NCBI GenBank assembly: GCA_963816185.1
Contig: CAWFJJ010000005.1
Location: 128,001-192,000 of the forward strand
Length of the DNA stretch: 64,000 nucleotides
Direction of reading: 5' to 3'
Source of the DNA: Thermoanaerobaculia bacterium
GTDB lineage: Bacteria > Acidobacteriota > Thermoanaerobaculia > UBA5066
Shown: positions 4,600-56,240 of the stretch, in pieces
How the letters are laid out: every line of letters starts with the position of its first letter
Numbering within the stretch: position 1 is the stretch's first letter
Position numbers and translations under genes: made by a program
Notes under the pieces: model-generated
What the model was told of the DNA's origin: nothing
Databases searched by the model: none
What the model saw: only the letters and a program-made list of their open reading frames with translations

Positions 4600-4724
4600 G
4601 AGAGCCTCCCTTTTTCGACCCGGCCGGCCGGGGGGCCATCATGGAATTTGGAGGCTGATACCCGGAATGATGCCGATGTATCACATAGTCGAGACAGGGT
4701 TTACCTTACGGCACGTCTTGCGCG

Positions 4725-7460
4725 TCACGGTGCCGCCGGTGCCTTCGTGAAATCACCTGCGCGGACGAGGGTCAGCTTCTTGGGATCGAGGCGCCGGTGC
4801 AGAGCTTCCCGGATCTGCTCCGGCGTCAGAGCGTCCACGTTCTTCTCGAAGTCCGCGTCCCACTGGAGCGTCCGGCCGAGATAGAGTTCGCCTGCGAGCG
4901 TACCCGCGAGCCCTTGGTCGTTCGCGCGTTGCACCTGCCGGCTCTGCAGCCAGCCGGACTTCGCCTCCGAGACCTCCTGATCCGTGAAGCCTCCCTCGAG
5001 GGCGCGGGCGATCTCTTCCCGCAGCGCTTTCTCGAGCTTCCACGTGTTCTGCGGTGCGTGGATCGCAAAGACGACGAAGCTGCCGGAAGAGTCGAGCGCA
5101 CGCGCCGAAAGCTGCGAGCCGACGCCGTAGCTCAGGCCCTCCTTCTGACGGATGCGGACCGCGAGCCGCGAGTTGAGGAAGCCGCCGCCGAGCATGTAGT
5201 TGCCGAGGACGAGGGCCGGATAGTCGGGATCGGAGTCTTTCAGCGAGAGGTTCATTCCAGCCAGGAGGATGGCGTTAGCCTTGTCGGGCGTTTCGAGCTT
5301 CTCGTTTCCGGCCGGCACGTCGTGGAACGGATGCTCGATCCGCGCATACGGCTTCGGCGCCGCCCACCCGTCGAGAAGAGAGCGGACGAGGTCGGACGTT
5401 TCCTTCGCGTCGAAGTCGCCGACGACCGCCAGCTCGCCGTGCGTGGCGCCGAGGAAAGCCGCGTGGAATTCCCTGGCCTGTGCGACCGTCGCCGCCTTGT
5501 ACGCGGCAATGAGCTCGTCGAGCGTCGGCTCGTAGCGAGCGTCGTCCTTCGCGTAAGGCGCCAGGCGCCGCGTGATGGCACGGCTCGCCAGCGCCTGCGG
5601 CTCGCTGCGCTCCTGCTCGAGGGCGGCGAGGTTCTCCTGCCGGAGCTGCTCGAACTGATCGGCAGGGAACGTGGGCCGCCGGAGGGCCTCGGCGAGGAGC
5701 TTCAGCGTCCCGGGCAGATTCTCGCGGACCGTCTCGATTCGGGCGTGAAGGGTGTCGAGGTCCGCCGAGATCGTGAGCCGCGCCTTCAGCTTGTCCAGCT
5801 CGTCGGCGAATTGCTGCCGGGTATGCACCGCGGTGCCGCGCGTGAGCATGTCGACCGCGAGGTCGCTCACGACCCGCTTGCCGCGCAGGCCGGCCTCCGT
5901 CCCGTAATGGAGCGACAGCGATGCGACGACGGTACCGCCGCGCGTCTTCTTCGGCAACAGCGCGAGCTTCAATCCGCCGGGCAGAGTCGAACGCTGCGTG
6001 CGCGCCTCCACGTTCGCAGGCGAAGGATCGAAGACCTCGCCGGCCGCGATCGCCTTGTCTCCGGTGTAACCCTGAAGAAGCGCCGAAGCGTCGGGAGCCT
6101 GAGGCACCTCGGCCCGGTCCGGCTTCGCGGTCGGGAGGAACTCGCCGAGCGTCCGGTTCGAAACCTTCAGGTACTTGAGCGCGACGCGCTGCACGTCCTC
6201 GGCCGTCACCTTACGGATGCGGTCACGGTTGAGGAAGAAGAGCCGCCAGTCGCCTTTCGCGATCCACTCGGAGATCTGGAGCCCCACGACCTCGGACTGG
6301 TTGAGCGCGAGCTCGAAGTCTTTCAACGCTTTCGTGCGTGCGCGCTCCAGCTCTTCCTTGGTGACCGGCGTCGTGGCGAGCGCGTCGATCGTGTCGAGAA
6401 GAGCCTTCTTCGCGTCCTCGAGAGGCTTCTCCTGCCGCACTTCGGCGCCGAAGAACAACAGGCCCGGCTCGCGGAGGTTGAACCCGAACCCGAAAACCGA
6501 GGACGCCTTCTGCGTCTCGACGAGCGCCTTGTGCAGCCGGCCCGCGGGAGTGTTCCCGAGGACGTACGCGAGCATCTGGAGAGGCACCGCGTCCTCGTGC
6601 AGCCCGGACGGCACGTGATAGGCCGCCACGACGAGCTGCTCGTCGCCGACGCGGCGAAGCGTCACCTGTCTCTCGCCGTCCTGCACGGGCTCGACGGTGT
6701 AAGTCGGGATCAGGACGCGCTCTATCTTCGGGATCGGGCCAAACGTCGCCGCCACGAGCGCGAGGACCTTCGCCTGCTCGAACTTGCCGGTGACGGTCAG
6801 GACCGCGTTGTCGGGCTGGTAGTAGCGCTTATAGAACGCCTGCAGGCGCCCGATGGGCGCGTTCTCGATGTCCGAGCGCGCCCCGATCGGCAGGTGGCGG
6901 TAGTTCTGCTCCTGGTAGGCCGCTGCCAGCACGCGCTTGATCAGGACGCCGGACGGGCTGTTCTCGCCGGCCTCGAACTCGTTTCGCACCACCGTCATCT
7001 CGGTGTCGAGGTCCTTCTTCCAGATGTGCGAGTTCACCATCCGGTCGGCCTCCAGCTCGAGCGCCCACTTGAGGTTCTCTTCCGTGGCCTGGAACGTCTC
7101 GAAGTAATTCGTCCGGTCGAATGACGTCGTGCCGTTCGGCCGCGCGCCGTGCGCGGTCAGCTCCTGCGGGATGTTCGGGTGCTTGTCGGTGCCTTTGAAG
7201 ACCATGTGCTCGAGGAGGTGGGCCATGCCGGTCTCGCCGTAGTCCTCGTGGCGCGCGCCGACGAGGTACGTGACGTTCACGGTGATCGTCTGCTTCGTGG
7301 GATCGGGAAAGAGAAGCACATGGAGGCCGTTCGCGAGCCGGTATTCGGTGATGCCTTCGACCGACGTCACGCGCTGCGGCTCGTTTGCGGCGCGTGCCGT
7401 GGCGGGGATGGCGAGGACGGCGACGAGGGCGACCGTGGCGGCGCGGGAGACTCGCGACAT
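4725..7460 (-). CDS. Secreted M16 (pitrilysin-family) zinc peptidase
   Basis: Signal peptide MSRVSRAATVALVAVLAIPATARA, inverted zinc motif HLLEH, two M16 halves. True start is ATG 7460; the longer ORF in the track runs through a tRNA. Confidence 0.9.
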   Translation of the reverse strand: MSRVSRAATVALVAVLAIPATARAANEPQRVTSVEGITEYRLANGLHVLLFPDPTKQTITVNVTYLVGARHEDYGETGMAHLLEHMVFKGTDKHPNIPQELTAHGARPNGTTSFDRTNYFETFQATEENLKWALELEADRMVNSHIWKKDLDTEMTVVRNEFEAGENSPSGVLIKRVLAAAYQEQNYRHLPIGARSDIENAPIGRLQAFYKRYYQPDNAVLTVTGKFEQAKVLALVAATFGPIPKIERVLIPTYTVEPVQDGERQVTLRRVGDEQLVVAAYHVPSGLHEDAVPLQMLAYVLGNTPAGRLHKALVETQKASSVFGFGFNLREPGLLFFGAEVRQEKPLEDAKKALLDTIDALATTPVTKEELERARTKALKDFELALNQSEVVGLQISEWIAKGDWRLFFLNRDRIRKVTAEDVQRVALKYLKVSNRTLGEFLPTAKPDRAEVPQAPDASALLQGYTGDKAIAAGEVFDPSPANVEARTQRSTLPGGLKLALLPKKTRGGTVVASLSLHYGTEAGLRGKRVVSDLAVDMLTRGTAVHTRQQFADELDKLKARLTISADLDTLHARIETVRENLPGTLKLLAEALRRPTFPADQFEQLRQENLAALEQERSEPQALASRAITRRLAPYAKDDARYEPTLDELIAAYKAATVAQAREFHAAFLGATHGELAVVGDFDAKETSDLVRSLLDGWAAPKPYARIEHPFHDVPAGNEKLETPDKANAILLAGMNLSLKDSDPDYPALVLGNYMLGGGFLNSRLAVRIRQKEGLSYGVGSQLSARALDSSGSFVVFAIHAPQNTWKLEKALREEIARALEGGFTDQEVSEAKSGWLQSRQVQRANDQGLAGTLAGELYLGRTLQWDADFEKNVDALTPEQIREALHRRLDPKKLTLVRAGDFTKAPAAP

Positions 7461-7485
7461 TTTTCCTCCGGTATGGTGGGGAAGC

Positions 7486-7561
7486 TGGTACCGCGTACGG
7501 GATTTGAACCCGTGATCTCCGCCTTGAGAGGGCGGCGTCCTAACCGCTAGACGAACGCGGC
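7486..7561 (-). tRNA. tRNA-Glu (CTC)
   Basis: Reverse complement GCCGCGTTCGTCTAGCGGTTAGGACGCCGCCCTCTCAAGGCGGAGATCACGGGTTCAAATCCCGTACGCGGTACCA folds as a cloverleaf with anticodon CTC, TTCAAAT T-loop and encoded CCA. Confidence 0.96.
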
Positions 7562-21796: not shown

Positions 21797-21985
21797 ATGG
21801 ACTTCCTCGGCTGGCTGCAGGATCTCGGGAAGGACGCGAGCCCGGCGCCGGGATTCCAGGCGCGGCCGCTCTATCTCCTCGTCTCGGTCGCGCTCCCCGT
21901 GACGCTGGGCCTTTTCGTGGGCTTTTCCCTGAGGCTCGTCGAGCGGCTCCTCGGAGTGGAGCTCGGCAAGCGAGCGGGTCACTGA
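21797..21985 (+). CDS. Small (62 aa) single-TM membrane protein
   Basis: AAGGAGG RBS, MDFLGWLQDLGK...LYLLVSVALPVTLGLFVGF...GKRAGH; its stop overlaps the TSUP start (TGATG). Confidence 0.75.
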   Translation: MDFLGWLQDLGKDASPAPGFQARPLYLLVSVALPVTLGLFVGFSLRLVERLLGVELGKRAGH

Positions 21986-22920
21986 TGGATGCCGGCAGCT
22001 TCTCGCTGGGCGCGCACTCCTTTCCGTTTCTCGCTCTCTTCGGCCTCGTGATCGGCGGGCTCGGCGGGTTCTTCGGGGTGGGCGGCGGCTTCCTCATGGT
22101 CCCGATGCTCAACGTCGTCTTCGGCGTTCCGTACAACATCGCCGTCGGGTCGGACCTGGGCCAGATGTGCGGAATGTCCGCCGCCGCGACGGTCCGCCAC
22201 TCGCGGTTTGGCAACATCGACTTCAAGCTCGGCTTCCTGATGATCGTGGGAACCGCAACCGGGGTCGAGCTCGGCGCCCAGGTGCTGGAGGTCCTCAAGA
22301 AGGTCGGCACCCTCTCGGTCTTCGGGCGCGAGATCGACGTGCTGACCGTCGTGATGAGCCTCGTCTACGCGCTCCTCCTCGTGTTTCTCGGTCAGGCGAT
22401 GGTGCGCGAGTCGCTGCGCACGATGCGGCGCGCCGCGGGGCAGGTGCAGCTCGGCGCCGAGGAGCCGGCGCCTTCCGCGGTCGTGAGGCTCCGGACCCTG
22501 AAGCTCTGGCCGATGGTGAGCCTGCCCGCGTCGGGAATCGAGTCGATCTCGCTTTGGATCATCCTCGGCATCGGCTTCGCCACCGGCTTCCTCTCCGGCA
22601 TGCTGGGAGTGGGCGGAGGCTTCATTCGGATGCCGGCGCTCGTCTACATCCTCGGCTGTCCGACCGTCGTGGCGGTCGGGACAGACCTGTTCGAGATCAT
22701 GTTCAGCTCCGGCTACGGCGTCCTGACGCATGCCTTCAAAGGAAACGTGCACCTCGTGCTCGTTCTCGCGCTCCTGATCGGAACCACGGTGGGCGCCCAG
22801 CTCGGGGCCTCGTATACGCGCCGGGCCGGTGGCCCCTGGGTCCGCTTCGGGTTCGGCTGTCTCGCCTTCGTGGGCGTGATCATGGTCGCCATCAAGCTCT
22901 ACGCGAAACTCCTCCGTTAA
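21985..22920 (+). CDS. TauE/SafE (TSUP) family sulfur-compound transporter
   Basis: Two repeats of GxxGVGGGF..VP/MP, AVGSDL/AVGTDL, GNIDFKLG; multiple TM helices. Confidence 0.93.
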   Translation: MDAGSFSLGAHSFPFLALFGLVIGGLGGFFGVGGGFLMVPMLNVVFGVPYNIAVGSDLGQMCGMSAAATVRHSRFGNIDFKLGFLMIVGTATGVELGAQVLEVLKKVGTLSVFGREIDVLTVVMSLVYALLLVFLGQAMVRESLRTMRRAAGQVQLGAEEPAPSAVVRLRTLKLWPMVSLPASGIESISLWIILGIGFATGFLSGMLGVGGGFIRMPALVYILGCPTVVAVGTDLFEIMFSSGYGVLTHAFKGNVHLVLVLALLIGTTVGAQLGASYTRRAGGPWVRFGFGCLAFVGVIMVAIKLYAKLLR

Positions 22921-22924
22921 GACC

Positions 22925-25498
22925 GTGAGCGGGTTCTGGCCCCGCATCGCCCGCCATCTCACGCCGCGAGGGCGCCGTCTGCTCCCTTCCTCCGCGGCGG
23001 AGAGGTTTACATGCTTGAGGGCGATCGGAGCCGCCAACGACACGTTCCTTTCCGAGCTCGCGCGATGCCAGGAGGCCGCAGAGGGAGAAGCCCCTCTCAG
23101 CCTCGGAGCCGTCGCCGACGCCTACGAGGCCCTCTCGGCCCCTGTCGGCACGATGGTGCGCGCCCTGATGGCCATGAGCGCCGGGCGATATGCCGACCTC
23201 GGCCCGCGCCACGAGGCGCTCGATCGAGAGCTGGCTTTGGAGGCTTTCCAGGCCCGCCCAGTCCAGTTCGGCCCGCTCGTCGTCTGGTCGAACGACCCCG
23301 AAGCTTGCCAACCCAGCGTCGCGGGACCCAAGGCCGCGCGCCTCGCGCAGCTCGTCGCAACCGGCGAGTTCGACATTCCCCCTTTCTTCGCCGTCACCGC
23401 GCACGGCTTCCGCCTCTTCATGGAGGCGAGCGGGGTCCAGGACGTCGTGAACGAGGCCCGCGCGACGACGGACTTGAACGACGCCGCGAGTCTCTCGCGC
23501 TTCTCGGACCGCGCCTTCGCCGCCGTTCTCGCCGCGCCTTTGCCGGCGTCCCTCGAGCGCGAGATCGAGAAAGCCATGCGCGCAATCGGCGAGGAGATCG
23601 GCGGCGAGGTCCGGGTGGCGGTCCGCTCCTCGGCCGTGGTCGAGGACACCACGTCGTCCTTCGCGGGCCAGTTCGAGTCGGTTCTCAACGTTCCTCCGGC
23701 CGGCGTCGCCGCCGCCTACCGGCACGTGATCGCCAGCAAGTTCCAGGTCGAGGCTCTTCGGTACGCCCTCGCGCGCGGCTTCGTCGACGAGCAGGTGACG
23801 ATGCCGGTCCTGTTCATGGCGATGATCATGCCCAAATCGAGCGGCATTGCCTACTCCCGGAACCCCGGCAGCCCGTGGTGCGCCACGATCACGGCAGTTC
23901 CGGGCCTCGCCCAAACGATCGCGGATGGCCGGGGGATCCCCGATGTCTACCAGGTCGTCGACGCGGAGCCGCCCCGCATCGAGGAAGTGGTTCCGGGCTC
24001 GCGGCCGCCGACTCTTCTTTGCGCCGCCGAAGGAGGCCTCGAGGAAGAGCCGGAAGATCGCGGCGCCGGGGCGAGGCTCGCCCTGGACGAGGAGGAAGCG
24101 TGCCGCGTCGCGCGACTCGCCTGGAGCCTGGAGAGACGCTTCGGGGAGCCCCAGGACGTGGAGTGGGCTCTCGACCAATCCGGTCGCCTCTACGTCGTGC
24201 AGACCCGTTCGCTCCGTCTCCCCGCCTCCGTGCCCAGCGGCGAACGAGATCCGATCCCGGCGGGATACCGGGTGCTCATGCGCGGCGGCTCGCGGGCCAG
24301 CGGCGGCGTTGCCGCCGGGCCGGTCGTCAAGCTGGCCGATTCCACCGCTCCGGGGGAGGTCCCCGACGGCTGCATCCTGCTCGTCCCCACGACGTCCCCG
24401 CGCCTGGCAGCCGTCATGGGCTCGGTGGCGGGCGTGATCGCGGGCACGGGAAGCGCGACGGGTCACATGGCGACCGTCGCGCGGGAGTTTGGCGTGCCTT
24501 GCCTCGTGGGAGCCGGAGCTTCCGTCGCGGCGCTCTCCGAAGGGGAGATCGTGACCCTGGATGCCGACGCCAGGATGGTCTTCGAGGGTGTGGTTGCGGA
24601 ACGGATTCGAAAAGAGCCGAGGGGGGCAGCGCCTCGTCGCCGCGACCCGGTCCGCGAGAACGTTCTCCGACTCCTGGGGCGTGTCGCGCCCCTCACCCTG
24701 ACGAACCCGGAGGCGCCCTCCTTCGACCCGGAGCACTGCGTCACCCTCCACGACGTGGCGCGTTTCGTCCACCAGCGCGCGATGGCCGAGATGTTCGCCG
24801 TCGAGGCGCTCACGCCGGCCGAGAGGCGCGCGTGCCGGAGGCTGAGCTGGCCCCGGCCCATGGAGATCCTCGTGCTCGACCTCGGGGGCGCGGTCTCCCG
24901 GGCGGGCCGCACGGTCTCGCTCGAGGCCCTGACCTCGGTGCCGTTCTCGGCCCTCCTGGAAGGGATGATGGACTCGCGGCTGCGGTGGGCCGGACCCGTC
25001 GGGTTCGACCTCAAAGGATTCGTCTCCGTAGTCGTCCGGAGCGCCGCCGACGATCAGCGCTACGGTGAACCAAGCTACGCGCTTTGCTCGGCCGATTACG
25101 TCCACTTCGCGTCCCGCCTCGCGTACCACTTCGCGACCGTGGAGGCCATCTGCGGGGCGTCGCCGAACGAGAACTACGTCCGCTTCCGCTTTCAAGGAGG
25201 CGCGGCCGTGGCGGAGCGGCGCGAATGGCGCGCGAGCTTCCTCGCTTGCGTCCTCAAGGTCAACGGGTTCACCGTGCGCCAGGTGGGCGACCGGGTGGAT
25301 GCGATCCTCCCCAAGCGGCCGAGGGAAGAGCTCGAAGACGCCCTCGTCATGCTGGGGCGGCTGATGGTGGCCTCACGCCATCTCGACATGGTCATCGAAA
25401 GTCCGGCGGTCGCCGCCGCGCTCTCGCAAGCGTTCCTGACGGGCGACTACAGTTTCGAGAAGGTGCGCCGCGAATCCCAGGGGAGATGGCCTTCTTGA
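22925..25498 (+). CDS. PEP-synthase/PPDK-like dikinase 1 (ATP-grasp + phospho-His swivel + uncharacterised C-terminal domain)
   Basis: GPKAARL, RSSAVVED..SFAGQF, QDVEWA..VQTR, GSATGHMATVAREFGVP. Confidence 0.88.
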   Translation: MSGFWPRIARHLTPRGRRLLPSSAAERFTCLRAIGAANDTFLSELARCQEAAEGEAPLSLGAVADAYEALSAPVGTMVRALMAMSAGRYADLGPRHEALDRELALEAFQARPVQFGPLVVWSNDPEACQPSVAGPKAARLAQLVATGEFDIPPFFAVTAHGFRLFMEASGVQDVVNEARATTDLNDAASLSRFSDRAFAAVLAAPLPASLEREIEKAMRAIGEEIGGEVRVAVRSSAVVEDTTSSFAGQFESVLNVPPAGVAAAYRHVIASKFQVEALRYALARGFVDEQVTMPVLFMAMIMPKSSGIAYSRNPGSPWCATITAVPGLAQTIADGRGIPDVYQVVDAEPPRIEEVVPGSRPPTLLCAAEGGLEEEPEDRGAGARLALDEEEACRVARLAWSLERRFGEPQDVEWALDQSGRLYVVQTRSLRLPASVPSGERDPIPAGYRVLMRGGSRASGGVAAGPVVKLADSTAPGEVPDGCILLVPTTSPRLAAVMGSVAGVIAGTGSATGHMATVAREFGVPCLVGAGASVAALSEGEIVTLDADARMVFEGVVAERIRKEPRGAAPRRRDPVRENVLRLLGRVAPLTLTNPEAPSFDPEHCVTLHDVARFVHQRAMAEMFAVEALTPAERRACRRLSWPRPMEILVLDLGGAVSRAGRTVSLEALTSVPFSALLEGMMDSRLRWAGPVGFDLKGFVSVVVRSAADDQRYGEPSYALCSADYVHFASRLAYHFATVEAICGASPNENYVRFRFQGGAAVAERREWRASFLACVLKVNGFTVRQVGDRVDAILPKRPREELEDALVMLGRLMVASRHLDMVIESPAVAAALSQAFLTGDYSFEKVRRESQGRWPS

Positions 25499-28062
25499 GG
25501 TCGATCTTCAACCTCGGGTCCGGCTCTCCCGGTGAGCTCCTCCGCCGCAAGTACACGAGCTTCCGGCGCCTTCTCGCGACGAACAACGAGATCCTCGAGC
25601 GGATCGCGGACCTCGAGGGAACCCTGGCCGCCGACCAGCCGATCCCCAACGACGAGCTCCTCGCGATCGCCCAGGCCGTCCGGGAGCGTGCCCTCCTGAT
25701 CGTGGAGGATCTCGACGTCATCGCCGAGGGCCGCTATCGCTCCCTGCGGGGGAACGTGGAGCGGATTGCCGCGGGGATCGAAGAGGCGCTCCGAAGCGTA
25801 CAGGGAACCCCGGTGACCGCCGCCTGCCTTCCGCTGGAGGGGCTGGATCGGCGGATGGCCGACGTCGTGGGGGGAAAGACCGCCAACCTCGGAGAGGTTC
25901 GCAACGTCGTCGGGTTGCCTGTTCCTCCTGGCTTCGCGATCACCGCCTTTGCATACCGGTCGTTCGTCTCCGGAGCGGGGATTCAGGAGCGCCTCACCGA
26001 GCTCTGGCGCGGTGTGGACTGGGATGACCTCCGGAACGTCCACAGGGCCGCCGACCAGATGCAGGCGCTCGTCCTCGGAGCCGAGATCCCGCAGGACGTG
26101 CGGGAGTCGATCACTCTTTCGGCACACGACCTCTATCGGCTCTCGTCGGGGCGTCCACGCGTCTCGATGCGCTCCTCCGCGATCGGCGAGGACAGCCGTA
26201 CCTCTTTCGCCGGCCAGTACGCGAGCTTCCTCAACGTCCCCCTCGAGCAGGTTCTCCGCCGCTACAAGGAGACCGTGGCGAGCAAGTTCGGCGCCCGGGC
26301 GCTCTTCTACATGCACTCGAAGGGGCTTCGCGAGGGCGAGATCGCGATGAGCGTGGGCTGCTTTCTGATGATCGAGGCGCGCGCTGCCGGCGTCGGGTAC
26401 ACCGTCGACCCGAACGACCCCGACCGGGACATGATGACGGTCGCGGCCGTGTGGGGCCTCGGCAGGCCCGTCGTGGACGGTACGATGACGCCCGACGTCT
26501 ACCTCGTGCCCCGAAGCTCGCGGAGCGGCGCGGTGCAGCGGCAGGTCGTCGTCAAGCCGCGCCGGATCGTCTGCGGCCCCGACGAGGGAGTCGTGGAAGA
26601 GGACGTGCCGCCGGAGCTGCAGGATCGCCCCTGCCTCGACGACGCGCAGCTCGATCGGCTGGCCGGATACATGCGGGCCCTGGAGGCCCACTACCGCACC
26701 CCTCAGGACGTGGAGTGGGTCCTCGACATGCACGGCCGCTTGTTCATCGTCCAGACGCGCCCTCTCGCTCTCCCCGAGAGTCCGGCGCCCAGGCTTCCCA
26801 ATTCCCCGGAAGTAAATCGCGACTGCTTGCTCTTTTTCAAGGGGGCGACCGCATGCCCCGGGGTCGGCGTGGGACCGGTCGTCCACGCCGAAAGCGACGA
26901 GGAGCTCTCGCAGTTCCCGCTCGGAGGCGTCCTCGTCGCGAGCCAGAATTCGCCCCGATTCGTCAACGTCATGACGCGCGCGGCGGCCATCGTCACCGAC
27001 GTCGGAAGCGTCACAGGGCACATGGCGTCGCTGGCGAGAGAATACGGCGTCCCGACCCTGTGTAACGTCGGCGAGGCGACCCGGCTCCCGCCGGGGTTGG
27101 AAGTGACGGTAGACGCCACGGCCGGCGCCGTCTACAGGGGACGCGTCGAGGAGCTCGTCTCGCGGGGGCGCGTCCAGAGACGGACCCTCAGGAACCTCCC
27201 CTCGGCCGCCGTCCAGGAGCGCGTGACGGCGCGGATCGCACACCTGAACCTGACCGACCCCTCGAAGAACTCGTTTCGGGCCAAGAACTGCACGACGTAT
27301 CACGACGTCGTCCGGTTCTGCCATGAGATGGCAATTTCCGAGATGTTCCACGTCAACGATTACTCGGAGCTCCGCGAGCGGGGGATGGCGTTCCGGCTCG
27401 AGACGGACGTCCCGCTGGGGATCTACGTCATCGACCTCGGAGACGGGCTCACGGCTCCGCCGGGGGCGCGCGGCATCACCCCGGCCCAGATCGTCTCGGT
27501 CCCGATGCGCGCGCTCTGGCGCGGCATCACGGCGCGCGGCGTCCGGTGGGCCGGCGCGCGGCCCATCGACGTGGGAGGCTTCCTTTCCGCCATGGCCAGC
27601 ACCGTCGCGGACGGTGCGCGGGGCGAGCGGGGGCTCGGGGACAACTCGTACGCGATGGTGGGAGCGAACTACGTCAACTTCGGATCGCGCCTCGGCTATC
27701 ACTTCACGACGCTGGAGGCGGTCTGCGGAGAAAGCGTCCATGAGAACTACATCGTCTTTCGCTTCAAAGGGGGAGCCGCCGAGCTCCAGAGGCGCGAGCG
27801 CCGGGTCCGCTTCATCGCGGACGTCCTGTCCCACTACGGCTTCGAGGTGGACCGCCGCCGGGATCTCCTCAATGCCTGGGTGAAGAAGCTCGATCGCCCG
27901 GCCATCGAGACACGCCTCGAGGTCCTCGGGCGCCTGATGGGTTGCGTCCGCCAGCTCGACGTCCTGATGCACGCGGAGACCTCCGTCGGTCAGTGCGTCG
28001 AGGCGTTCCTCGCGGGCCGCTTCGAATTCTTCGACTTCGAAAAGGGCGGCCCGGGCCCATGA
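25486..28062 (+). CDS. PEP-synthase/PPDK-like dikinase 2 (paralog of the preceding gene)
   Basis: Start ATG 25486 (MAFLRSIF, overlapping the upstream gene end); GGKTANLGE, RSSAIGED..SFAGQY, QDVEW..VQTRPL, GSVTGHMASLAREYGVP. Confidence 0.88.
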   Translation: MAFLRSIFNLGSGSPGELLRRKYTSFRRLLATNNEILERIADLEGTLAADQPIPNDELLAIAQAVRERALLIVEDLDVIAEGRYRSLRGNVERIAAGIEEALRSVQGTPVTAACLPLEGLDRRMADVVGGKTANLGEVRNVVGLPVPPGFAITAFAYRSFVSGAGIQERLTELWRGVDWDDLRNVHRAADQMQALVLGAEIPQDVRESITLSAHDLYRLSSGRPRVSMRSSAIGEDSRTSFAGQYASFLNVPLEQVLRRYKETVASKFGARALFYMHSKGLREGEIAMSVGCFLMIEARAAGVGYTVDPNDPDRDMMTVAAVWGLGRPVVDGTMTPDVYLVPRSSRSGAVQRQVVVKPRRIVCGPDEGVVEEDVPPELQDRPCLDDAQLDRLAGYMRALEAHYRTPQDVEWVLDMHGRLFIVQTRPLALPESPAPRLPNSPEVNRDCLLFFKGATACPGVGVGPVVHAESDEELSQFPLGGVLVASQNSPRFVNVMTRAAAIVTDVGSVTGHMASLAREYGVPTLCNVGEATRLPPGLEVTVDATAGAVYRGRVEELVSRGRVQRRTLRNLPSAAVQERVTARIAHLNLTDPSKNSFRAKNCTTYHDVVRFCHEMAISEMFHVNDYSELRERGMAFRLETDVPLGIYVIDLGDGLTAPPGARGITPAQIVSVPMRALWRGITARGVRWAGARPIDVGGFLSAMASTVADGARGERGLGDNSYAMVGANYVNFGSRLGYHFTTLEAVCGESVHENYIVFRFKGGAAELQRRERRVRFIADVLSHYGFEVDRRRDLLNAWVKKLDRPAIETRLEVLGRLMGCVRQLDVLMHAETSVGQCVEAFLAGRFEFFDFEKGGPGP

Positions 28063-28093
28063 ATCGGCCGGCCCGGGGCCGGAAAGCTCTCTG

Positions 28094-28131
28094 AAAAGAA
28101 GGGAGCCCCGCCGAAACCGGCCGGGGCTCCC
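28094..28131 (-). terminator. Intrinsic terminator after hppA
   Basis: Stem GGGAGCCCCG/CGGGGCTCCC followed on the minus strand by TTCTTTT; lies between convergent genes. Confidence 0.7.
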
Positions 28132-28167
28132 GAGGATCTCTGCTCTTCTTCTCGAGCCGGTGCCGGA

Positions 28168-30408
<2,241 letters not shown>

Positions 30409-30493
30409 AACACTGTCTCTCCTCTCCTCATTCGAACTGGTGGTGTCTGTACCGTGTCACGAACCGGGCGGGTATGGCAATGGTGCGGCTCAA

Positions 30494-31291
30494 TCAGTGT
30501 CCCCCGCGTCCAAAAAGAGTACCCGCGAGCCATCCTGCCGCCACTGCGATGAGCACGGTGAAAGCACCATAGACGAGCGGGCGTCGCTCCGCGAGCCGTG
30601 ACACCCAATCGACCACGCCCTTCTTGCGCACGAAGAGATTGCTGGTCTGAACGCCCAGCATCCGATCGTCGCCGAGAAACGAGGTGGTGACCTGGTATCG
30701 GCCGTCCGGAGCGCAGGCGGGGAGGCTGAACACGTGGTAGAAGGCGCCCCGATCGTTGAGGCGGATCCCGTTGGGCCGGACGCCGTAGAGACCGCGCTGG
30801 CCCTGCAGGTCCCAGAATCCCTCCAACACCCGGCCGCTCTCGCCCTCGTGCATCGGCCCCGAGAGGCTCGAGAGACGGGCGTGCGCGATCAGCGTCTCGC
30901 GACCGGCGGCGAGGTCGAAGGGGGCGAGGAGTCGATTGCTCGCCTCGAGATCATCGGCAGGCAGGCACGGGGCGAAGCCGTTGCACAGGGGGGAGCTCAC
31001 GTTCACGAGGTAGAGCCCCGGCACACCCGAAAGGCGGTATTGACGGACGCCCAGCCAGAACAACGCGACCCGCCCCTTCTCCATGAGACGGACGACGCCG
31101 GCCGAGGGCCCCTCCAGCACGGCCAGCACGCGCCGAGTCCCGGCCGGCGCGGTCCCGTGCAGGAAGAGGTCCAGGCCCGAGAAGGAGTAGGAAACCTCCA
31201 CGCGCTCCACGTCCGATTGCGGGACGACCGCCGAGACCGGGACGGAGACCTCCGGTCTGTTCAGGACGGCGAAGAGGAGGAATGCCAGCAA
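30494..31291 (-). CDS. TIGR02186-like TSUP-associated membrane-anchored protein
   Basis: YSFSGLDL..G, KGRVALFWL, VPGLY, LPACAPDGRY, C-terminal TM PLVYG..VLIAVAAGWLAG; follows a TSUP gene. Confidence 0.75.
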   Translation of the reverse strand: MLAFLLFAVLNRPEVSVPVSAVVPQSDVERVEVSYSFSGLDLFLHGTAPAGTRRVLAVLEGPSAGVVRLMEKGRVALFWLGVRQYRLSGVPGLYLVNVSSPLCNGFAPCLPADDLEASNRLLAPFDLAAGRETLIAHARLSSLSGPMHEGESGRVLEGFWDLQGQRGLYGVRPNGIRLNDRGAFYHVFSLPACAPDGRYQVTTSFLGDDRMLGVQTSNLFVRKKGVVDWVSRLAERRPLVYGAFTVLIAVAAGWLAGTLFGRGGH

Positions 31292-31292
31292 G

Positions 31293-32855
31293 TCAGTGTC
31301 CGCCGCCCGCCCTGGCGAAGTCGATGAGCTGCGCCGGCGGAATGAGGAGCTGTACGAGGAGGATGGCCATCACCACGAGCACGATGAGCGCGAGGAACAC
31401 CCGAATCTGCTCGCCGCGGAGGCGGCGGCTGGCCGCCACGCCGAACTGGGCGCCGATGACGGATCCGGCGAAGAGCGCGACCGCAAGCATGACGTCCACC
31501 GTTTGGTTGGTCAACGACTGCTGCAGTGTCACGTTGGCCGAGGTCAGCACGATCTGGAAAAGGTCCGTCCCCACCGCGACGCGCGTGGGGATGCCGATGA
31601 TGTAGATCATCGTCGGAAGCATGATGAAGCCGCCCCCGACTCCCAGGAAGGCGGCGAGCAGGCCCACGAGGACGCCTGCGCCGACGGGAAGGAGGACCGA
31701 CGTGCGGAGTCCCGACTTCGGGAAATGGACCTGCAGCGGCAGGCGGGAGAACAAAACCGTGAGCGTGCCGCCCGAGGGTTCGCCCGCTCGGGATCGGCCC
31801 CGCCATGCGCGCAAGCCCTCGCGCAGCATGCCGAGGCCGATGAACCCGAGCACGAGGACGTAGACGAGCTTGAGGAAGAAGTCGAAGTTCCCGAGGTTGC
31901 GGAGAACCTTCACGAGATGGACCCCGGCGAACCCGCCGGCCCAGCCCCCGCAGACGATGAACAGCCCCATCTTGAAGTCCACGTTTCCCAGGCGAGAGTG
32001 GGAGAGAGCGCCGGACGTGGCGCCGGCGGTGATCTGCGCGGCGTCGGTCGCGGCCGCCACGGCGGCGGGGATGCCGATGAAGATGAGGAGCGGCGTCATC
32101 AGGAAGCCGCCTCCGACGCCGAAGAGGCCGGACAGGAATCCGACGAGTGAGCCCATTCCCGCGATGAGAAGAGGGCTCACGGAGGCGCCGGCCACCGGGA
32201 AGTAGAACCGCAGGTGCTCGAAAAGGCCTTTGCTCTCCTGGTGCTGCACCCGCCCGACCATGGCCGGTGTGACGTTCGGGTGGCAGGCGCCGCACGTCTG
32301 CGCGAGCCTGCCGGGGCTGACGCTCGAACGGGGATCGCTTGCGGGAAGGATGTCGTGAGCCTCGTGGCACGACGGGCAAGTGGCCACGTCGAGAATGCCG
32401 TGAGAGAGGGCCACGCCGTGGAACGTCCGCTCGAAGCCCTCCACGCTCGCCGAAGGCAGCTCGGTGTGACGCAGCACCGCGGGGTCGTCGTGGCAGCGCG
32501 CGCAGGTCATGGAGACGCGGCCGACCGAGGTGGGCGCGGCCGCGCTGTGCACCGGCAGCACGGCATGGCCGCCGTGACACGACACGCAGGTGGCGGAAAG
32601 ACCGTCGCCATTGGCCACGCTGCGGGCGTGCGAGCTCGTGCGGTAAGCCTGAAGCTGCTTCTCGTGGCAGCGACCGCACGAGGCGGCCACGTTCTCGGCG
32701 CTCACCGCTGACGCGAAACCGGTCGACGACGCCCCCTCGGACCCGTGACACTCTGCGCACGCCAGGCCCGCGTGAACGCCTCCGAGAGGGACCCGGCCGC
32801 CCACCGCCAGAGGACTCGCGAGGACGTGACTTCCGAACCCGAAAGCCGCCGCCAT
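31293..32855 (-). CDS. Hexaheme cytochrome c domain fused to a TauE/SafE (TSUP) transporter
   Basis: Six CxxCH motifs (CAECH, CGRCH, CVSCH, CARCH, CPSCH, CGACH) in frame with a complete TSUP (GLFGVGGGFLMTP; GVGGGFIMLP; AVGTDLFQ). Start codon uncertain (32855 in frame; see findings). Confidence 0.88.
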   Translation of the reverse strand: MAAAFGFGSHVLASPLAVGGRVPLGGVHAGLACAECHGSEGASSTGFASAVSAENVAASCGRCHEKQLQAYRTSSHARSVANGDGLSATCVSCHGGHAVLPVHSAAAPTSVGRVSMTCARCHDDPAVLRHTELPSASVEGFERTFHGVALSHGILDVATCPSCHEAHDILPASDPRSSVSPGRLAQTCGACHPNVTPAMVGRVQHQESKGLFEHLRFYFPVAGASVSPLLIAGMGSLVGFLSGLFGVGGGFLMTPLLIFIGIPAAVAAATDAAQITAGATSGALSHSRLGNVDFKMGLFIVCGGWAGGFAGVHLVKVLRNLGNFDFFLKLVYVLVLGFIGLGMLREGLRAWRGRSRAGEPSGGTLTVLFSRLPLQVHFPKSGLRTSVLLPVGAGVLVGLLAAFLGVGGGFIMLPTMIYIIGIPTRVAVGTDLFQIVLTSANVTLQQSLTNQTVDVMLAVALFAGSVIGAQFGVAASRRLRGEQIRVFLALIVLVVMAILLVQLLIPPAQLIDFARAGGGH

Positions 32856-32963
32856 CAGAAGGGTCGTGCGCCCTGAGACCCTCAGCGCCGGGCGCGCCTC
32901 ATGACGGCCGCCTCGCAGGAATCGAGCGCCTCCCGCCGGACGCTGGCAGCTCTGCACGGCGGT

Positions 32964-32979
32964 GGCAAAGCAAGTCCCA
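32964..32979 (-). promoter_or_regulatory. Candidate sigma54 promoter of the cytochrome-TSUP operon
   Basis: Minus strand TGGGACTTGCTTTGCC (GG-N10-GC, TTGC at -12), in the gap after the sigma54 activator gene. Confidence 0.5.
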
Positions 32980-33135
32980 CGCCTCGATCTCGACGGGCCA
33001 CCGATTCGCTAATGATTGATGGCGTTGAACTTGTAGCTCTGGAGGCCAAAGCCGCGAAGGCGGCTTGTTACGATCTCTTCCCATACGGGGCGGAGTGCGA
33101 TCATCTCCCGGGTCCCCAAAACGAAACGGGCGACG

Positions 33136-34515
33136 TCAGCCGGTCTCGAGACCGTAGTGCTTCGTCTTCTCCCAGAGGGTCTTTCGGCTGACGCGCAGGA
33201 GCTGCGCGGCTTCGCTTCGGCGCCCCTCGGTGGTCTCCAGCGCGGCCTTGATGGCCTCGATCTCCGCTCGCTCGACCGCTTCCTGCAGGGTCGTCGCCTG
33301 TGGGGCGGCGGGAGCGCGGTGCGGGGCGGAGCTCGCCGTGCGCACGTTGGCGGGGAGGTCGTCGATCGTGATCTTCGAGCCGGTGCAGAACAGAGCCGCC
33401 CTCTCCACGACGTTGCGAAGCTCCCGCACGTTCCCCGACCAGTGATGCGCGTCGAACGCCTGCAGCGCCTCCGTGGAGAATCCCACGACCGCCTTCTGCC
33501 TCGCGCGCGTGAACTCCTCCAGGAACGACCGGGCCAGGATCGGGATGTCTTCCCTTCGTTCGCGCAACGGCGGGAGGTGAATGGTCACCGTGTTGATGCG
33601 GAAGAAGAGGTCCTCGCGGAACAGACCTTCTGTGATCTCCTCCTCAAGCGGGCGGAGCGACGCCGAGACGATGCGGAAGTCCACATTGATGGTGCGCTGC
33701 GAGCCGAGCCGTTCGATCTGCCGCTCCTGAAGGACGCGCAACAGCTTGACCTGGAAGGAAGGGGGGAGCTCGCCGATCTCGTCCAGGAACAGCGTGCCTC
33801 CGGACGCGGCCTCGAATCGCCCGATCCGTCGGTCGGTCGCACCGGTGAATGCGCCTCTCTCGTATCCGAAAAGCTCCGATTCGAGCAGCGATTCGGGAAG
33901 CGAGGCGCAGCTCACGCGAATGTAGGGGCGGGCTCGCCGCGCCGAGTTGTAATGGACCGCGGAGGCGACGAGCTCCTTGCCCGTGCCGCTCTCTCCTTGA
34001 ACGAGGACGTTCGCGTCGGAGTCGGCGACCACCTTGATCAGCTCGAACACCTCGTGCATCTGCTTGCTCTTGCCGATGATGCTGCCGAACGAGAAGCGCT
34101 GCTCGAGCTGCTCTTGAAGGCGGACGTTCTGCTCCTTGAGCGACCGGAAGGAGCAGACATTGTCGAGGCGCAGCAGGAGCTGCATCATCGAGAACGGCTT
34201 CGTGATGAAGTCCGCGGCGCCCTGCCGCATGGCGTCCACCGCCGAGTCGATCGTGCCGTGCGCCGTGATGATGATGACCGTCGCGTCGGGCTTGAGGGCT
34301 TTGACGCGTCGAAGGAGCTCGAGGCCGTCGACACGCGGCATCAGCAGATCGGTCAGGACGACCTCGTGACCCTGCCGCTCGAACTGCGCAAACGCTTTCG
34401 CGCCATCCTCCGCGACGTCCACCTCCCAGCCTTCCTTGCGAAGAGCGTCCGCCATCGTGATGCGGAGAATCGGCTCGTCCTCGGCGATCAGGAGTCGGTT
34501 TCCACAGAGTGTCAT
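33136..34515 (-). CDS. NtrC-family sigma54-dependent response regulator (REC-AAA+-HTH)
   Basis: AEDE, TDLLMP receiver; [22 protein letters not shown]; C-terminal [18 protein letters not shown]. Confidence 0.96.
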
Positions 34516-35987
34516 GGCGTTACTTCTTCGGCCTGCGGGGGGTGGCTCAGGGGCAGGGTGATCCGGAAGGTGGCTCCCTTGCCCACCTGGCTGTTCACCT
34601 CGATGGTCCCGTTGTGAGCCGCGACGATATTATAGCTGACCGCGAGGCCGAGCCCGGTGCCCTTGCCCACGTCGCGGGTGGAGAAGAAGGGGTCGAAAAT
34701 GCGCTCGCGGATCTCTTCTGGAATCCCGACTCCCGTGTCGATCACCTCCGTCACCGCGTTCCCGCCGGTGCGTCGCGTGCGAAGCGTGAGCTTTCCCCCC
34801 TTCGGCATGGCCTGGATGGCGTTCAAGACGAGGTTCAGGAAGAGCTGTTCCATCTGGAAATGATCCGCTAGCACGACGGGCTCGACCGGCGCCAGGTCGA
34901 AGAGCACCTCCACGCGGTTCGCCCGAAGCTGATATTGAGCCAGCTCGACCACATGGCGGAGATTCTCGTTGAGGGACGTGGGCTCGGGGCGGATCTCGCT
35001 CGGCCGGGAAAAATCCAGGAGGTTCAGAACCGTGTGCTCGATTCGCTTGATGCCGTCCTGCACGAGGGCGAGGTATCGGTCGCGCATCTCGACGTCTTCC
35101 GGGTGGGCGACGATCGCCTCCAGGCAGGTGAGGATGCCCGCCAGCGGATTGTTCACCTCGTGAGCGACTCCCGCGGCGAGGGTCCCCACGGCGGCCATCT
35201 TCTCCGTGTGGGCCAGCCTGGCCCACCGCATCTCCTCCCGCCCTCGCGCTTGCTCGAGCTCCTCCATCGTCCGGTTGAAGGCCGCGGCCAGCTCGCCAAC
35301 CTCGTCCCATCGCTTGACCGGAGCACGTGCTTTCAGATCACCCCGCCCGGCCTGCCTCATGGTGTTGTGCAGGTTGAGGATCGGCCGGATCAGCGTCTCG
35401 ACGTAGACCGCGGTGAGGATGGAGCTTCCCAGCATGAGGATGAGCGCCACGAGGCCGGCGCGCTTGGCGATGCCGCGAACCTCCTGCTCGATCGGACTGA
35501 GGGAGAACCCGATGGCCAGGGAGCCCCAGAAGCGTGTCGAGATGCTGAGGGACGTGCGGACCTCGAGAATCCGTTCCCCGGACGAGGCCGTGCGCTGCTC
35601 GACAAGGGAAGCCCCCCCGACCGGAGAACGGTACAAAGCTCGCCCGAAGCGTTGCCCGATGAGGTTCCAACGGTTGGAGTGGGTGACGACTCCCCGCTGG
35701 TCGGTGATGATGACGTAGCGCACGAAGTCGCGGTTGCGGTCGATCAAGCCGTCGAGGTAGCTCTCGATGAGCCCCTCCTCCACGACCGCGCCCAGCTCCC
35801 CGTAGACGAGCGCGTCCGTGACAGGCACTGTAAACGTTTCTGCGAGGGCCCTTCCGCGCGCGACGATCTCGTCGTAGCGAGCGCTACGCTCGTGAATCAC
35901 AGCCAGCACGGTGACGAGCCCCATGGTCACCGCAATGAGGGTGTTCGAGTAAAGGAAGAACTTCAGGCGAAGACCGAGAAACGCCAT
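34512..35987 (-). CDS. Membrane sensor histidine kinase (2 TM, periplasmic domain, HAMP, HisKA, HATPase)
   Basis: Start ATG 35987 ([13 protein letters not shown]); [45 protein letters not shown]. Confidence 0.93.
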
Positions 35988-35989
35988 GT

Positions 35990-36895
35990 TCACTGCCGCG
36001 CCGGGAGGCACTCCCTCCTCATCGCCGAGTCGGAGAGAGTGAGCGCGTTTGAGCCGAACACCCGCCGGGCGAGCTTGCGGATCGGGTCGTATTCCTCGTC
36101 GGACACGGGCACGAAGCCTTCGGAGAGCTCTTCCTCCCAATCCTTCATTGCCGCCGCCACCCAGCGATTCTGGCCCGGGAGGACGGCGAGAACGCGCACG
36201 AGCTGCTCCCGAAGTGCCGGCGGCGTTCCGGGGGCCAGTCCGAGCACGAAGTTGGGAATCTGATCCGAGCGGGCCAGGACCCGGAGCGCCTGTCGCGCCA
36301 CGAACTTCTCCCCCACGATGTCGCGCACCGCGCAGGCATCCACCTCTCTAAGAAGGACCGCCCGCGCCGCTTGTTCATTTTGGGCGTAGTACCGGCAGCT
36401 GAGGTTCACGCCGACGCGCAGGCCGGCGTCCTCGAGCATCCCGCGCGCCACGAGGCTGGACGCCGTCGACATCGGCTCGCCGAAGCCGAACTTCTTGCCG
36501 GCCAGCTCCTCAAGGTGCTGCAGCTTGCTGTCGACGCGAACCATGATGAGGCCGTGATACGTGGGCTTGCCGTGGGTGTTGAGCTTGACCACCGGGATGA
36601 CCTGGCAGGCTGCGTGAGCGCGCGCATAGGTGTAAGGACCGAGATTAGCCATCGTCAGCTTTCCGGCGCAGAGGTCCTCCACTGCTTTTTCATAGGAGTC
36701 GACGAGCACGAGATCCCAAGGCTCTCCCGTAGCGCTTTCGAGATAGTTGGCCAGGGGTTGGTACTTGAGGTACATCACCCGGGGGGTATAAACGCTCACG
36801 ACCCCGAAGCGCTTGCGAGGCGACGGCTTTGCGGGTGCCGCGGCCGCGCCGGCAGCCAGCAAGACGACACCCACCAAGCTAGCGAGCGTTCGCAT
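35990..36895 (-). CDS. PhnD/phosphonate-binding-like periplasmic oxyanion-binding protein
   Basis: Signal peptide; YQPLANYLE, LGPYTY, YHGLIMVR..S, LAGKKFGFG...STASSL, DEEYDPIR. No ABC permease adjacent; directly upstream of the kinase. Confidence 0.85.
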   Translation of the reverse strand: MRTLASLVGVVLLAAGAAAAPAKPSPRKRFGVVSVYTPRVMYLKYQPLANYLESATGEPWDLVLVDSYEKAVEDLCAGKLTMANLGPYTYARAHAACQVIPVVKLNTHGKPTYHGLIMVRVDSKLQHLEELAGKKFGFGEPMSTASSLVARGMLEDAGLRVGVNLSCRYYAQNEQAARAVLLREVDACAVRDIVGEKFVARQALRVLARSDQIPNFVLGLAPGTPPALREQLVRVLAVLPGQNRWVAAAMKDWEEELSEGFVPVSDEEYDPIRKLARRVFGSNALTLSDSAMRRECLPARQ

Positions 36896-53147: not shown

Positions 53148-53173
53148 AGCAACCCTTGTGCCCGTATTCACAG
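53148..53173 (-). promoter_or_regulatory. sigma54 promoter of dsrA overlapped by a Rex-like operator
   Basis: Minus strand CTGTGAATACGGGCACAAGGGTTGCT contains GGCAC-N5-TTGCT (-24/-12) and the palindrome CTGTGAA-N4-GGCACAA. Confidence 0.7.
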
Positions 53174-56214: not shown

Positions 56215-56240
56215 TTGTGAAATCTGGCACATGCCTTGCT
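56215..56240 (+). promoter_or_regulatory. sigma54 promoter of aprBA overlapped by a Rex-like operator
   Basis: TTGTGAAATCTGGCACATGCCTTGCT contains the near-consensus TGGCAC-N5-TTGCT and TTGTGAA-N4-GGCACAT. Confidence 0.78.

Follow-up and report, generated by a model that had tools for sequence, protein, structure and literature searches.

A six-haem cytochrome fused to a TSUP permease and its PF09608 partner in the sulfate-respiration gene set of a Thermoanaerobaculia bacterium

One gene of the DNA studied here encodes a six-haem c-type cytochrome in frame with a membrane permease of the TSUP (TauE/SafE) family, and the next gene downstream encodes a protein of the family PF09608. The DNA is a stretch of 64,000 nucleotides from a Thermoanaerobaculia bacterium of the Acidobacteriota (GenBank assembly GCA_963816185.1, contig CAWFJJ010000005.1, positions 128,001 to 192,000 of the forward strand) and is called the window in the following. 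We found that the feature is real, a permease of the TSUP family to which a redox module is fused and which has a fixed partner, located within a sulfate-respiration gene set. The gene and its domains, their conservation, the partner gene and the synteny with the genes of Sat, Apr, Qmo and HppA were observed directly. For the function, we give about even chances to the proposal that the TSUP/PF09608 pair is the sulfate or sulfite carrier of the adenosine 5'-phosphosulfate (APS) pathway, is docked to Qmo and has a haem wire to periplasmic electron carriers.

Results

The fused gene and its domains

The two genes of the pair and the two parts of the fused gene are located in the window as follows.

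31293..32957, minus strand: cytochrome-TSUP fusion gene, open frame from GTG at 32957, stop codon at 31293-31295
32211..32855, minus strand: putative N-terminal export segment and six-haem c-type cytochrome domain with six CxxCH motifs
31296..32210, minus strand: TSUP/TauE domain of two repeats, each with a beta-hairpin and five helices and with GVGGGF in both
30494..31291, minus strand: PF09608 (Alph_Pro_TM) partner with a signal peptide, two periplasmic beta-sandwiches and a C-terminal transmembrane helix

An earlier sequence-only reading of the window had described a single open reading frame in which six CxxCH motifs are joined to a full two-repeat TSUP, and this was confirmed by the Pfam scores and the motif coordinates. 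The minus-strand frame 31293..32957 comprises 554 amino acids counted from the GTG. Its CxxCH motifs are encoded at 32745-32759, 32664-32678, 32574-32588, 32490-32504, 32364-32378 and 32280-32294 (all minus strand), and there is no stop between this region and a complete TauE/TSUP domain. The Pfam family TauE (PF01925) matched residues 266-531 of the 554-residue form with an E value of 2.6e-43 (148.8 bits, cut-off 32.6) and was covered from profile position 2 to 235 of 237. For the cytochrome part (PF14522 / PF14537), Cytochrome_C7 scored 35.5 bits against a cut-off of 24.8, and Cytochrom_c3_2 scored 36.1 bits against 25. The start codon of the fused gene is uncertain, since the frame is open upstream of the ATG at 32855, where the database gene call (P0001, 520 amino acids) begins, yet no in-frame ATG, GTG or TTG was found between 32957 and 32855.

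The fusion is real and old

The conservation of the fusion was analysed in the best 120 of 7848 database matches with E <= 1e-3. Between 5 and 10 CxxCH motifs were present in 101 of these 120 relatives (six motifs in 48, nine in 37, five in 9, eight in 3, seven in 3 and ten in 1), with 1-4 motifs in 11 others and none in 8. The last six motifs had a constant spacing of 27-28, 30, 28, 42 and 28 residues. When the TSUP domain alone was used as the query and proteins of at least 535 amino acids were collected, the cytochrome-TSUP architecture was found in 83 of the 120 long forms among the matches listed. In a FastTree phylogeny of the TSUP domain, calculated with 149 of 150 rows after one short row had been dropped, 103 fused rows descended from one ancestral node (support 0.83) with five short plain rows inside. 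These five proteins (P0109, P0110, P0112, P0114 and P0116) are haem-less TSUPs of 309-327 amino acids that are 66-77% identical; they may reflect gene calls that were cut short, genes split so that the cytochrome is encoded separately, or a secondary loss of the haem domain.

The junction from the last haem motif to the first TSUP helices, for which a confirmation in reads had been recommended, was bridged by Logan contigs from three runs without indels or joints.

32025-32525: X2, record 8
31965-32297: X4, record 15
31974-32238: X1, record 4

The three runs are from one study, possibly from the source sample, no single Logan contig covers the entire fused gene, and parts such as 32581-32636 are covered by X5 only. 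The stronger argument for a real fusion comes from independent assemblies, as the fused form was also found in the independent genomes G373 and G143 and in 7 metagenome contigs. A fusion caused by an assembly error, or present as a one-off decaying allele, had been named among the outcomes that would undo the finding. The uncertain start codon would be compatible with it, as would three same-genus genomes without the fused gene and the size of the host genome (5.09 Mb, compared with 3.6-3.9 Mb in these three), which leaves the contig possibly mis-binned; mis-binning, however, alters the host label and not the gene. For the gene itself this explanation is refuted by the database relatives, the long forms, the junction contigs and the independent loci, and its probability is negligible.

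The haem domain

The cysteine and histidine residues of all six motifs were conserved throughout an alignment of 104 fused homologues, with counts from 95 of 96 rows up to 104 of 104. Outside the motifs, the following histidines were aligned (P0001 numbering): H76 in 104/104 rows, H97 in 100/104, H146 in 103/103, H167 in 103/103, H205 in 96/104 and H28 in 48/92, the last being kept mainly in six-haem forms. H76 and H146 are the histidines of the SSHA and TFHG sequences that had been picked out as candidate distal ligands. M199 was conserved in 83 of the 104 homologues, and no conserved cysteine or lysine was found among them outside the motifs.

The presence of six conserved histidines for six haems favours a bis-His electron wire over a catalytic site. 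From these alignments, the six haems are probably all bis-His ligated and the domain is probably an electron wire. The best match of the haem domain in a sequence search of the PDB was the pentahaem cytochrome NrfB (phmmer E 0.028, 17.5 bits, with the domain flagged as questionable); the weak alignment spans haems 2-6 of the fused protein and stays below significance for the NrfB family. A PDB search with the whole fused protein returned nothing at E <= 0.01. Taken with the six histidines, the weak likeness to NrfB argues for plain electron transfer rather than for catalysis or sensing.

A basic and then hydrophobic N-terminus was present in 60 of 69 full-length homologues. The host genome has CcmC- and CcmF-type maturation genes; ResB was not found in it.

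Fold and topology of the TSUP domain

The AlphaFold2 model, made with an alignment of 150 rows, had a mean predicted local distance difference test score (pLDDT) of 88.4 and a predicted TM-score of 0.81. It consists of two units, each with a beta-hairpin and five helices, and suggests that the TSUP domain is a 5+5-helix inverted repeat. Each repeat contains one nearly invariant motif, FGVGGGF at 245-251 and LGVGGGF at 404-410 (P0001 numbering). The best structural match with Foldseek was BacA/UppP (5oon, 6fmt; TM-score 0.57-0.62 on the target, probability 1.0, E 0.07-0.14), which we take to be an inverted repeat with re-entrant hairpins. The sequence identity to BacA/UppP is 12% and there is no sign of a common function.

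The predicted topology has both the N-terminus and the C-terminus outside and an Arg-rich central loop in the cytoplasm. A periplasmic haem domain is predicted by three independent lines. Firstly, a c-type haem domain must be periplasmic. Secondly, natural TauE-PF09608 fusions have no transmembrane helix between the two domains, and free PF09608 proteins have signal peptides. Thirdly, the predicted inside loops of the 150 sequences contain a mean of 12.0 Lys and Arg residues and the predicted outside loops a mean of 2.9. Plain members of the subfamily start exactly at the hairpin with M-x-x-Y-L-P-V-A, so that the cytochrome would have been added onto a periplasmic N-terminus. Only about ten residues lie between H205 and the first TSUP residue.

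The PF09608 partner

The TTG start codon of the partner gene lies 1 nucleotide past the stop of the fused gene. The partner matched PF09608 with an E value of 1.2e-40 (140.2 bits, cut-off 24.5) and scored 67.3 bits on TIGR02186, below the cut-off of 255.25; the wording "TIGR02186-like" that had been chosen for it was therefore right. A PF09608 homologue was found in 58 of 80 species-representative loci; in 54 of the 80 it is encoded by the very next gene downstream on the same strand. Of the 22 loci with no match, 5 end after less than 700 bp on the downstream side. Fusions of TauE with PF09608 made up 31 of the 120 long forms among the matches listed, and four of them were checked by Pfam.

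The model of the partner (pLDDT 90.4) shows two beta-sandwiches, a helical insert and a C-terminal transmembrane helix. Foldseek searches with this model yielded Ig-, arrestin- or pilin-like sandwiches of a generic kind only, all at E >= 1e-3, and gave no functional lead, and a search of the protein atlas returned only its own family. When the complex of the TSUP domain and the PF09608 protein was predicted, the interface score ipSAE was 0.77, 0.81 and 0.77, compared with 0.00 for the best of three controls. At least 83% of the contacts were common to the runs and the pLDDT of the partner was at least 76. Among solved complexes, 58 of 80 score as high, as do 2 of 110 mismatched pairs, a calibration that is only roughly applicable as own alignments were used here. 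The prediction supports the binding of the partner to the TSUP domain as a heterodimer. In the modelled complex, the transmembrane helix of the partner packs on the TSUP helices 3, 8 and 9, and its beta-sandwiches cap the periplasmic face. The periplasmic domain touches the TSUP residues 216-225, 322-330, 451-456 and 503-520, which fits the topology described above. The periplasmic position of the haem domain and the TSUP-PF09608 heterodimer are both predictions.

Fused genes are found beside qmoC, sat and hppA

In total, 13 fused loci were compared: the window, three of the 80 species-representative loci (L001-L003), seven of 80 metagenome loci that were found with the haem domain as the query (L097-L102 and L126) and two from a sample of the phylum (G373 and G143). 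The gene orders are given below, where cytTSUP stands for the fused gene.

aprB-aprA-...-qmoAB-qmoC-cytTSUP-PF09608-sat: L002 (checked by Pfam), L101, L102, L177 and L178
qmoC-cytTSUP-PF09608-sat: L099
qmoC-cytTSUP, followed by the contig end: L100
cytTSUP-PF09608-sat: L126
qmoAB-qmoC-sat-hppA-cytTSUP-PF09608: L003
hppA adjacent: the window, L001, L098 and L003
no neighbour found: L097, a contig of 3.5 kb

The qmoC gene was located upstream on the same strand in 8 of the 13 fused loci. It was directly adjacent in seven of them and separated by sat and hppA in L003. In 7/13 loci sat followed the partner gene and in 4/13 hppA was adjacent, so that at least one of qmoC, sat and hppA accompanied the fused gene in 12 of 13.

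In other lineages, a second kind of fusion was observed with QmoC itself. Among the 120 long forms of the matches listed, four proteins of about 775 amino acids had Fer4-type iron-sulfur domains at the N-terminus (P0132, P0270, P0273 and P0286). Two of them, P0132 and P0270, are a full-length QmoC fused to the TSUP subfamily and scored 337 and 332 bits on the qmoC equivalog NF038018 (cut-off 300); P0132 is 36% identical to the QmoC of the host genome. An extra transmembrane helix joins the cytoplasmic end of QmoC to the periplasmic start of the TSUP domain. The QmoC-TSUP fusions and the position next to qmoC, as read from the sequences, point to a link to the Qmo complex, which had not been considered in the earlier reading.

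Two of the loci were also compared with the window in their flanking genes. Near the fused gene of L002, a regulator and a kinase are 69% and 54% identical, respectively, to those of the window. L001 is a 4.6-kb contig (JBLMYG010000041.1) labelled Acidithiobacillales, where the cytTSUP is 79%, the partner 72% and HppA 91% identical to those of the window; mis-binning or a recent transfer is likely.

Distribution

The distribution was investigated in the phylum sample of 401 genomes, with thresholds of E <= 1e-40 for the TSUP subfamily and E <= 1e-60 for dsrA. The fused form was present in 3 genomes, the TSUP subfamily in 32, dsrA in 42 and the latter two together in 29. The subfamily was also present in 3 of 359 genomes without dsrA, two of which are 64-73% complete and one of which gave a weak match. 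The genomes are related, with 24 of them in one family, and the counts therefore serve as a description rather than as a test of association. In this family a plain pair with a PPDK-like gene adjoins sat and dsrMKOP. The link to the Dsr/Apr pathway that had been proposed from the window is borne out by qmoC, sat or hppA at 12 of the 13 fused loci and by dsrA in 29 of the 32 genomes with the subfamily.

The host genome (G000) has 5.09 Mb and 3.4% contamination, and its sulfur superlocus is on the 316-kb contig C5. Three genomes of the same genus (99% complete, 3.6-3.9 Mb) contain neither the fused gene nor dsrA, so that the superlocus is either an accessory or acquired island in the genus or contig C5 is mis-binned. 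The relatives bear the names Thermoanaerobaculaceae, Acidobacteriota and, for one cluster, Armatimonadetes. All forms seen in Desulfobacterota, Nitrospirota and Alphaproteobacteria were plain, usually in the order sigma54 regulator-TauE-PF09608-PPDK-like. The PPDK-like gene was present in 38 and the regulator in 48 of the 80 species-representative loci.

Neighbouring genes and possible sigma54 control

The features around the pair in the window are listed here.

32964..32979, minus strand: candidate sigma54 (-24/-12) promoter TGGGAC-N5-TTGCC, 9 of 11 consensus positions
33136..34515, minus strand: response-regulator sigma54 activator (REC, AAA+, HTH_8; Sigma54_activat E 9.9e-70), upstream of the fused gene
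34512..36140, minus strand: sensor histidine kinase (sCache-like, HAMP, HisKA, HATPase), start uncertain
35990..36895, minus strand: PhnD-like periplasmic binding protein PF12974, upstream of the kinase
28168..30408, minus strand: membrane H+-pyrophosphatase HppA, 85 nucleotides downstream of the partner gene
21985-22920, plus strand: second TauE gene, plain
23003-25456 and 25501-28062, plus strand: tandem PPDK_N and PEP-utilizers proteins of about 820-850 amino acids, downstream of the plain TauE, the C-terminal third of each being unassigned

A sigma54 promoter and an activator gene had been reported in front of the fused gene. The activator was verified by its Sigma54_activat domain, and the promoter stays a candidate because motifs with a score of at least 9/11 occur in 95 of 3000 random 480-bp segments (about 3%) and motifs with at most two mismatches were not enriched over the window (19 seen, 15.5 expected). 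Upstream of the TauE gene, a motif of at least 9/11 was found in 9 of 79 loci, compared with the 95 of 3000 random segments. Sigma54-type motifs also occur in the window upstream of aprB at 56225-56240 (plus strand, TGGCAC-N5-TTGCT, 10/11) and upstream of dsrA at 53148-53163 (minus strand, 9/11). In all five related aprB loci (L002, L101, L102, L177 and L178) a 9/11 motif is located 244-279 bp upstream of aprB. These motifs raise the prospect that the core sulfate-respiration operons of these Acidobacteriota may be sigma54-dependent. From the 9/11 motifs upstream of aprB, the fused gene of the relatives is probably transcribed with a sigma54-dependent apr operon, and in the window, away from this operon, it has a candidate promoter of its own. 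For TSUP operons of Desulfovibrio vulgaris, sigma54 control is documented in the passages available of PMC4641369.

The window also holds dsrAB, a dsrL-like gene, dsrN, dsrMK(J)OP, aprBA and the start of qmo; qmoC and sat are just past its end. In the window, qmoA and qmoB form a single frame of 1086 amino acids at 60175-63435 (plus strand), compared with two genes for 414 and 750 amino acids in L002, and this frame is either a fusion or an over-long call. Between aprA and qmoA there is a gene for a CxxCxxCC-domain protein (PF03692) at 59097-59939 (plus strand), found also in L002 at 3995-4990. The locus L096 encodes at 5730-7487 (G000:C5:195730-197487) an HdrD/DsrK-like protein (Fer4_8 and CCG) that ends in a response-regulator receiver domain; the genes for Sat, an Rrf2 regulator and a macro-domain protein lie just upstream of it. 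The host genome has four TauE genes, each near a PPDK-like gene, and on contig C28 a triad of plain TauE, PF09608 and PPDK-like genes was observed.

Discussion

In the proposed mechanism, one polypeptide would present an exported six-haem domain on a tether of about ten residues at the periplasmic N-terminus of the TSUP membrane domain, which would pair with the single-pass PF09608 protein encoded downstream. The TSUP/PF09608 unit would belong to the dissimilatory APS pathway (Sat, AprBA, QmoABC, HppA and Dsr) and would carry most likely sulfate, less likely sulfite, across the membrane beside QmoC. Docking to Qmo is suggested by the QmoC fusions and the gene order. The haem wire would then connect a Qmo-centred membrane assembly to periplasmic electron carriers, and the electrons would presumably enter in sulfate reduction or leave in sulfite oxidation.

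Several observations weigh against this carrier role. In the window the pair is 27-33 kb away from aprBA-qmo-sat, with qmoC about 31 kb off and not adjoining. An AprA match was found inside the 10-kb flanks in just 2 of the 80 species-representative loci, and the plain pair of Desulfobacterota and Nitrospirota is located with a sigma54 regulator and a PPDK-like gene and not with apr or sat. The TSUP domain contains conserved mid-membrane Asp and Gln residues, which would be unusual in a carrier of anions alone; neither His nor Cys is conserved in it, so that the wire would have no acceptor inside the TSUP domain. The protein of the window, when read from the ATG at 32855, lacks the basic and then hydrophobic N-terminus that was taken as the mark of a signal peptide. 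SulP, DASS and PHO4/CysP-type genes are also present in the host genome, which makes the TSUP not the only possible sulfate carrier; as the sole candidate of the genome it is ruled out. Finally, the role proposed for the family members is drawn from sequence, context and models.

A more far-reaching form of the proposal is that the fused protein and its PF09608 partner are unrecognised subunits of a Sat-Apr-Qmo supercomplex, in which sulfate would be delivered where it is activated and the wire would be the direct periplasmic partner of QmoC. We regard this as a tentative idea that is rather unlikely in its full extent.

Among the explanations that compete with the carrier role, the haem chain might act chemically on the transported sulfur species, for example polysulfide, thiosulfate, tetrathionate or sulfite. 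These would be reduced or oxidised at the periplasmic mouth of the TSUP/PF09608 unit, either ahead of their uptake or once they have been exported. The short stretch of about ten residues between H205, the candidate ligand of the last haem, and the TSUP domain should bring haem 6 to this mouth, and the cytochrome c and QmoC fusions both join the periplasmic N-terminus of the TSUP domain. In addition, Dissulfuribacter has higher levels of TauE and of its "co-occurring transmembrane protein" when it disproportionates thiosulfate, as far as the accessible part of PMC13490349 tells. However, the haem domain shows no sign of a catalytic haem, as all motifs are CxxCH, six histidines serve six haems and non-motif Cys or Lys is not conserved among the homologues. 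The PF09608 folds resembled only generic Ig- or arrestin-like domains, and the Sat/Apr context calls for sulfate or sulfite, neither of which needs periplasmic redox chemistry. Such a conversion is unlikely in our opinion.

The haems might instead act as a redox sensor in the periplasm that gates the TSUP domain, so that sulfate would be taken up only under reducing conditions. A sensor-like domain that is covalently attached at the mouth of a channel would suit this task, and the presumed two-component and sigma54 control of the locus suggests a conditional use. Known haem-c sensor domains, however, have one or two haems, whereas here a chain of 6 to 10 haems is conserved with fixed spacing, which is typical of long-range electron transfer. 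Moreover, QmoC, to which the TSUP is fused in other proteins, transfers electrons and does not act as a sensor. We consider a redox-gated transporter quite improbable.

Lastly, the TSUP domain might not carry anions at all but anchor the cytochrome in the membrane, or supply Qmo with energy as a path for H+ or Na+. The pair would then be part of the Qmo complex in a structural or an energetic role. The same haem module occurs in cytochromes that are anchored by b-type membrane domains, for instance P0147 with Ni_hydr_CYTB, acidic TD..Q motifs are conserved in the TSUP helices 3 and 8, and the fold resembles BacA/UppP, which is an enzyme rather than a carrier. Yet ten helices, two near-invariant GVGGGF motifs and an obligate partner are far beyond the needs of an anchor. 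Genetically, TSUP relatives act as anion carriers, as described in the portions seen for CysZ of Corynebacterium glutamicum (cited in PMC5840216) and for the nitrate phenotype of Desulfovibrio (PMC4001038). The anchor or ion path has, in our judgement, a slim chance.

We return to the proposed carrier docked to Qmo and compare it with known systems. The fused protein is a full member of the TSUP / TauE-SafE family (PF01925, TC 2.A.102), which includes TauE of Cupriavidus necator and CysZ of C. glutamicum (PMC5840216), and to these it adds a periplasmic multihaem cytochrome and an obligate PF09608 subunit, with relatives located inside aprBA-qmoABC-sat. For sulfate reducers, the excerpts at hand of the same article propose that sulfate is carried by TSUPs. 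In Desulfovibrio, the loss of a cluster of TauE, small partner, PhnD/PtxB-like, histidine kinase, response regulator and PPDK-like genes leads to nitrate resistance, according to the part consulted of PMC4001038. When this "nitrate cluster" (DVU0251-DVU0245 / Dde_0597-0605) was compared by its part list as given there, all six part types were also present in the window at 21985-36895; its permease, as described, has no haem domain, unlike the fused protein of the window. Four syntenic genes of unknown function are mentioned for acidobacterial dsr loci in the sections viewed of PMC6018796.

The relation to QmoABC consists of the qmoC neighbourhood in most fused loci and of the QmoC-TSUP fusions; for Qmo itself we know of no cytochrome c or transporter subunit. 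With membrane-anchored wires like NrfB the fused protein has the chain of CxxCH motifs and the bis-His candidates in common, and the sequence similarity is marginal. The cytochrome subunits QrcA and HmcA/TmcA of sulfate-reducer membrane complexes are presumably similar multihaem wires. The anchor of the fused protein is a transporter-family domain in place of a single helix or quinone-reactive subunit. A precedent for TauE with another periplasmic domain is MamO of magnetotactic bacteria (NF040961), which we assume to have a degenerate protease domain at the N-terminus and no haems. MamO is related to the fused protein by the TauE domain only, and the TauE part of P0270 gave a weak score of 29.9 bits on the MamO model (cut-off 800). 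In the literature searched we found no description of a haem-bearing TSUP, of a TSUP located inside aprBA-qmoABC-sat, of a QmoC-TSUP fusion or of PF09608, and none in the passages of PMC8528874 that were available, in agreement with the earlier statement that no heme-bearing TSUP has been characterised.

The finding touches two open questions, namely which carrier imports sulfate or sulfite in sulfate reducers, and what driving force or partners Qmo uses for APS reduction. A pair located between qmoC and sat, whose permease is fused to a multihaem cytochrome or to QmoC, is a concrete and testable candidate for both. It would be the first TSUP with a redox domain, and it gives a functional lead for the PF09608 family and for the widespread clusters of TauE, partner and PPDK-like genes in anaerobes. 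If the supercomplex existed, it would supply the additional donor or acceptor of QmoC that has long been discussed for menaquinol-driven APS reduction, and transport and respiration would be wired in one membrane machine. The arrangement may show how electron flow and the transport of sulfate come together at the membrane.

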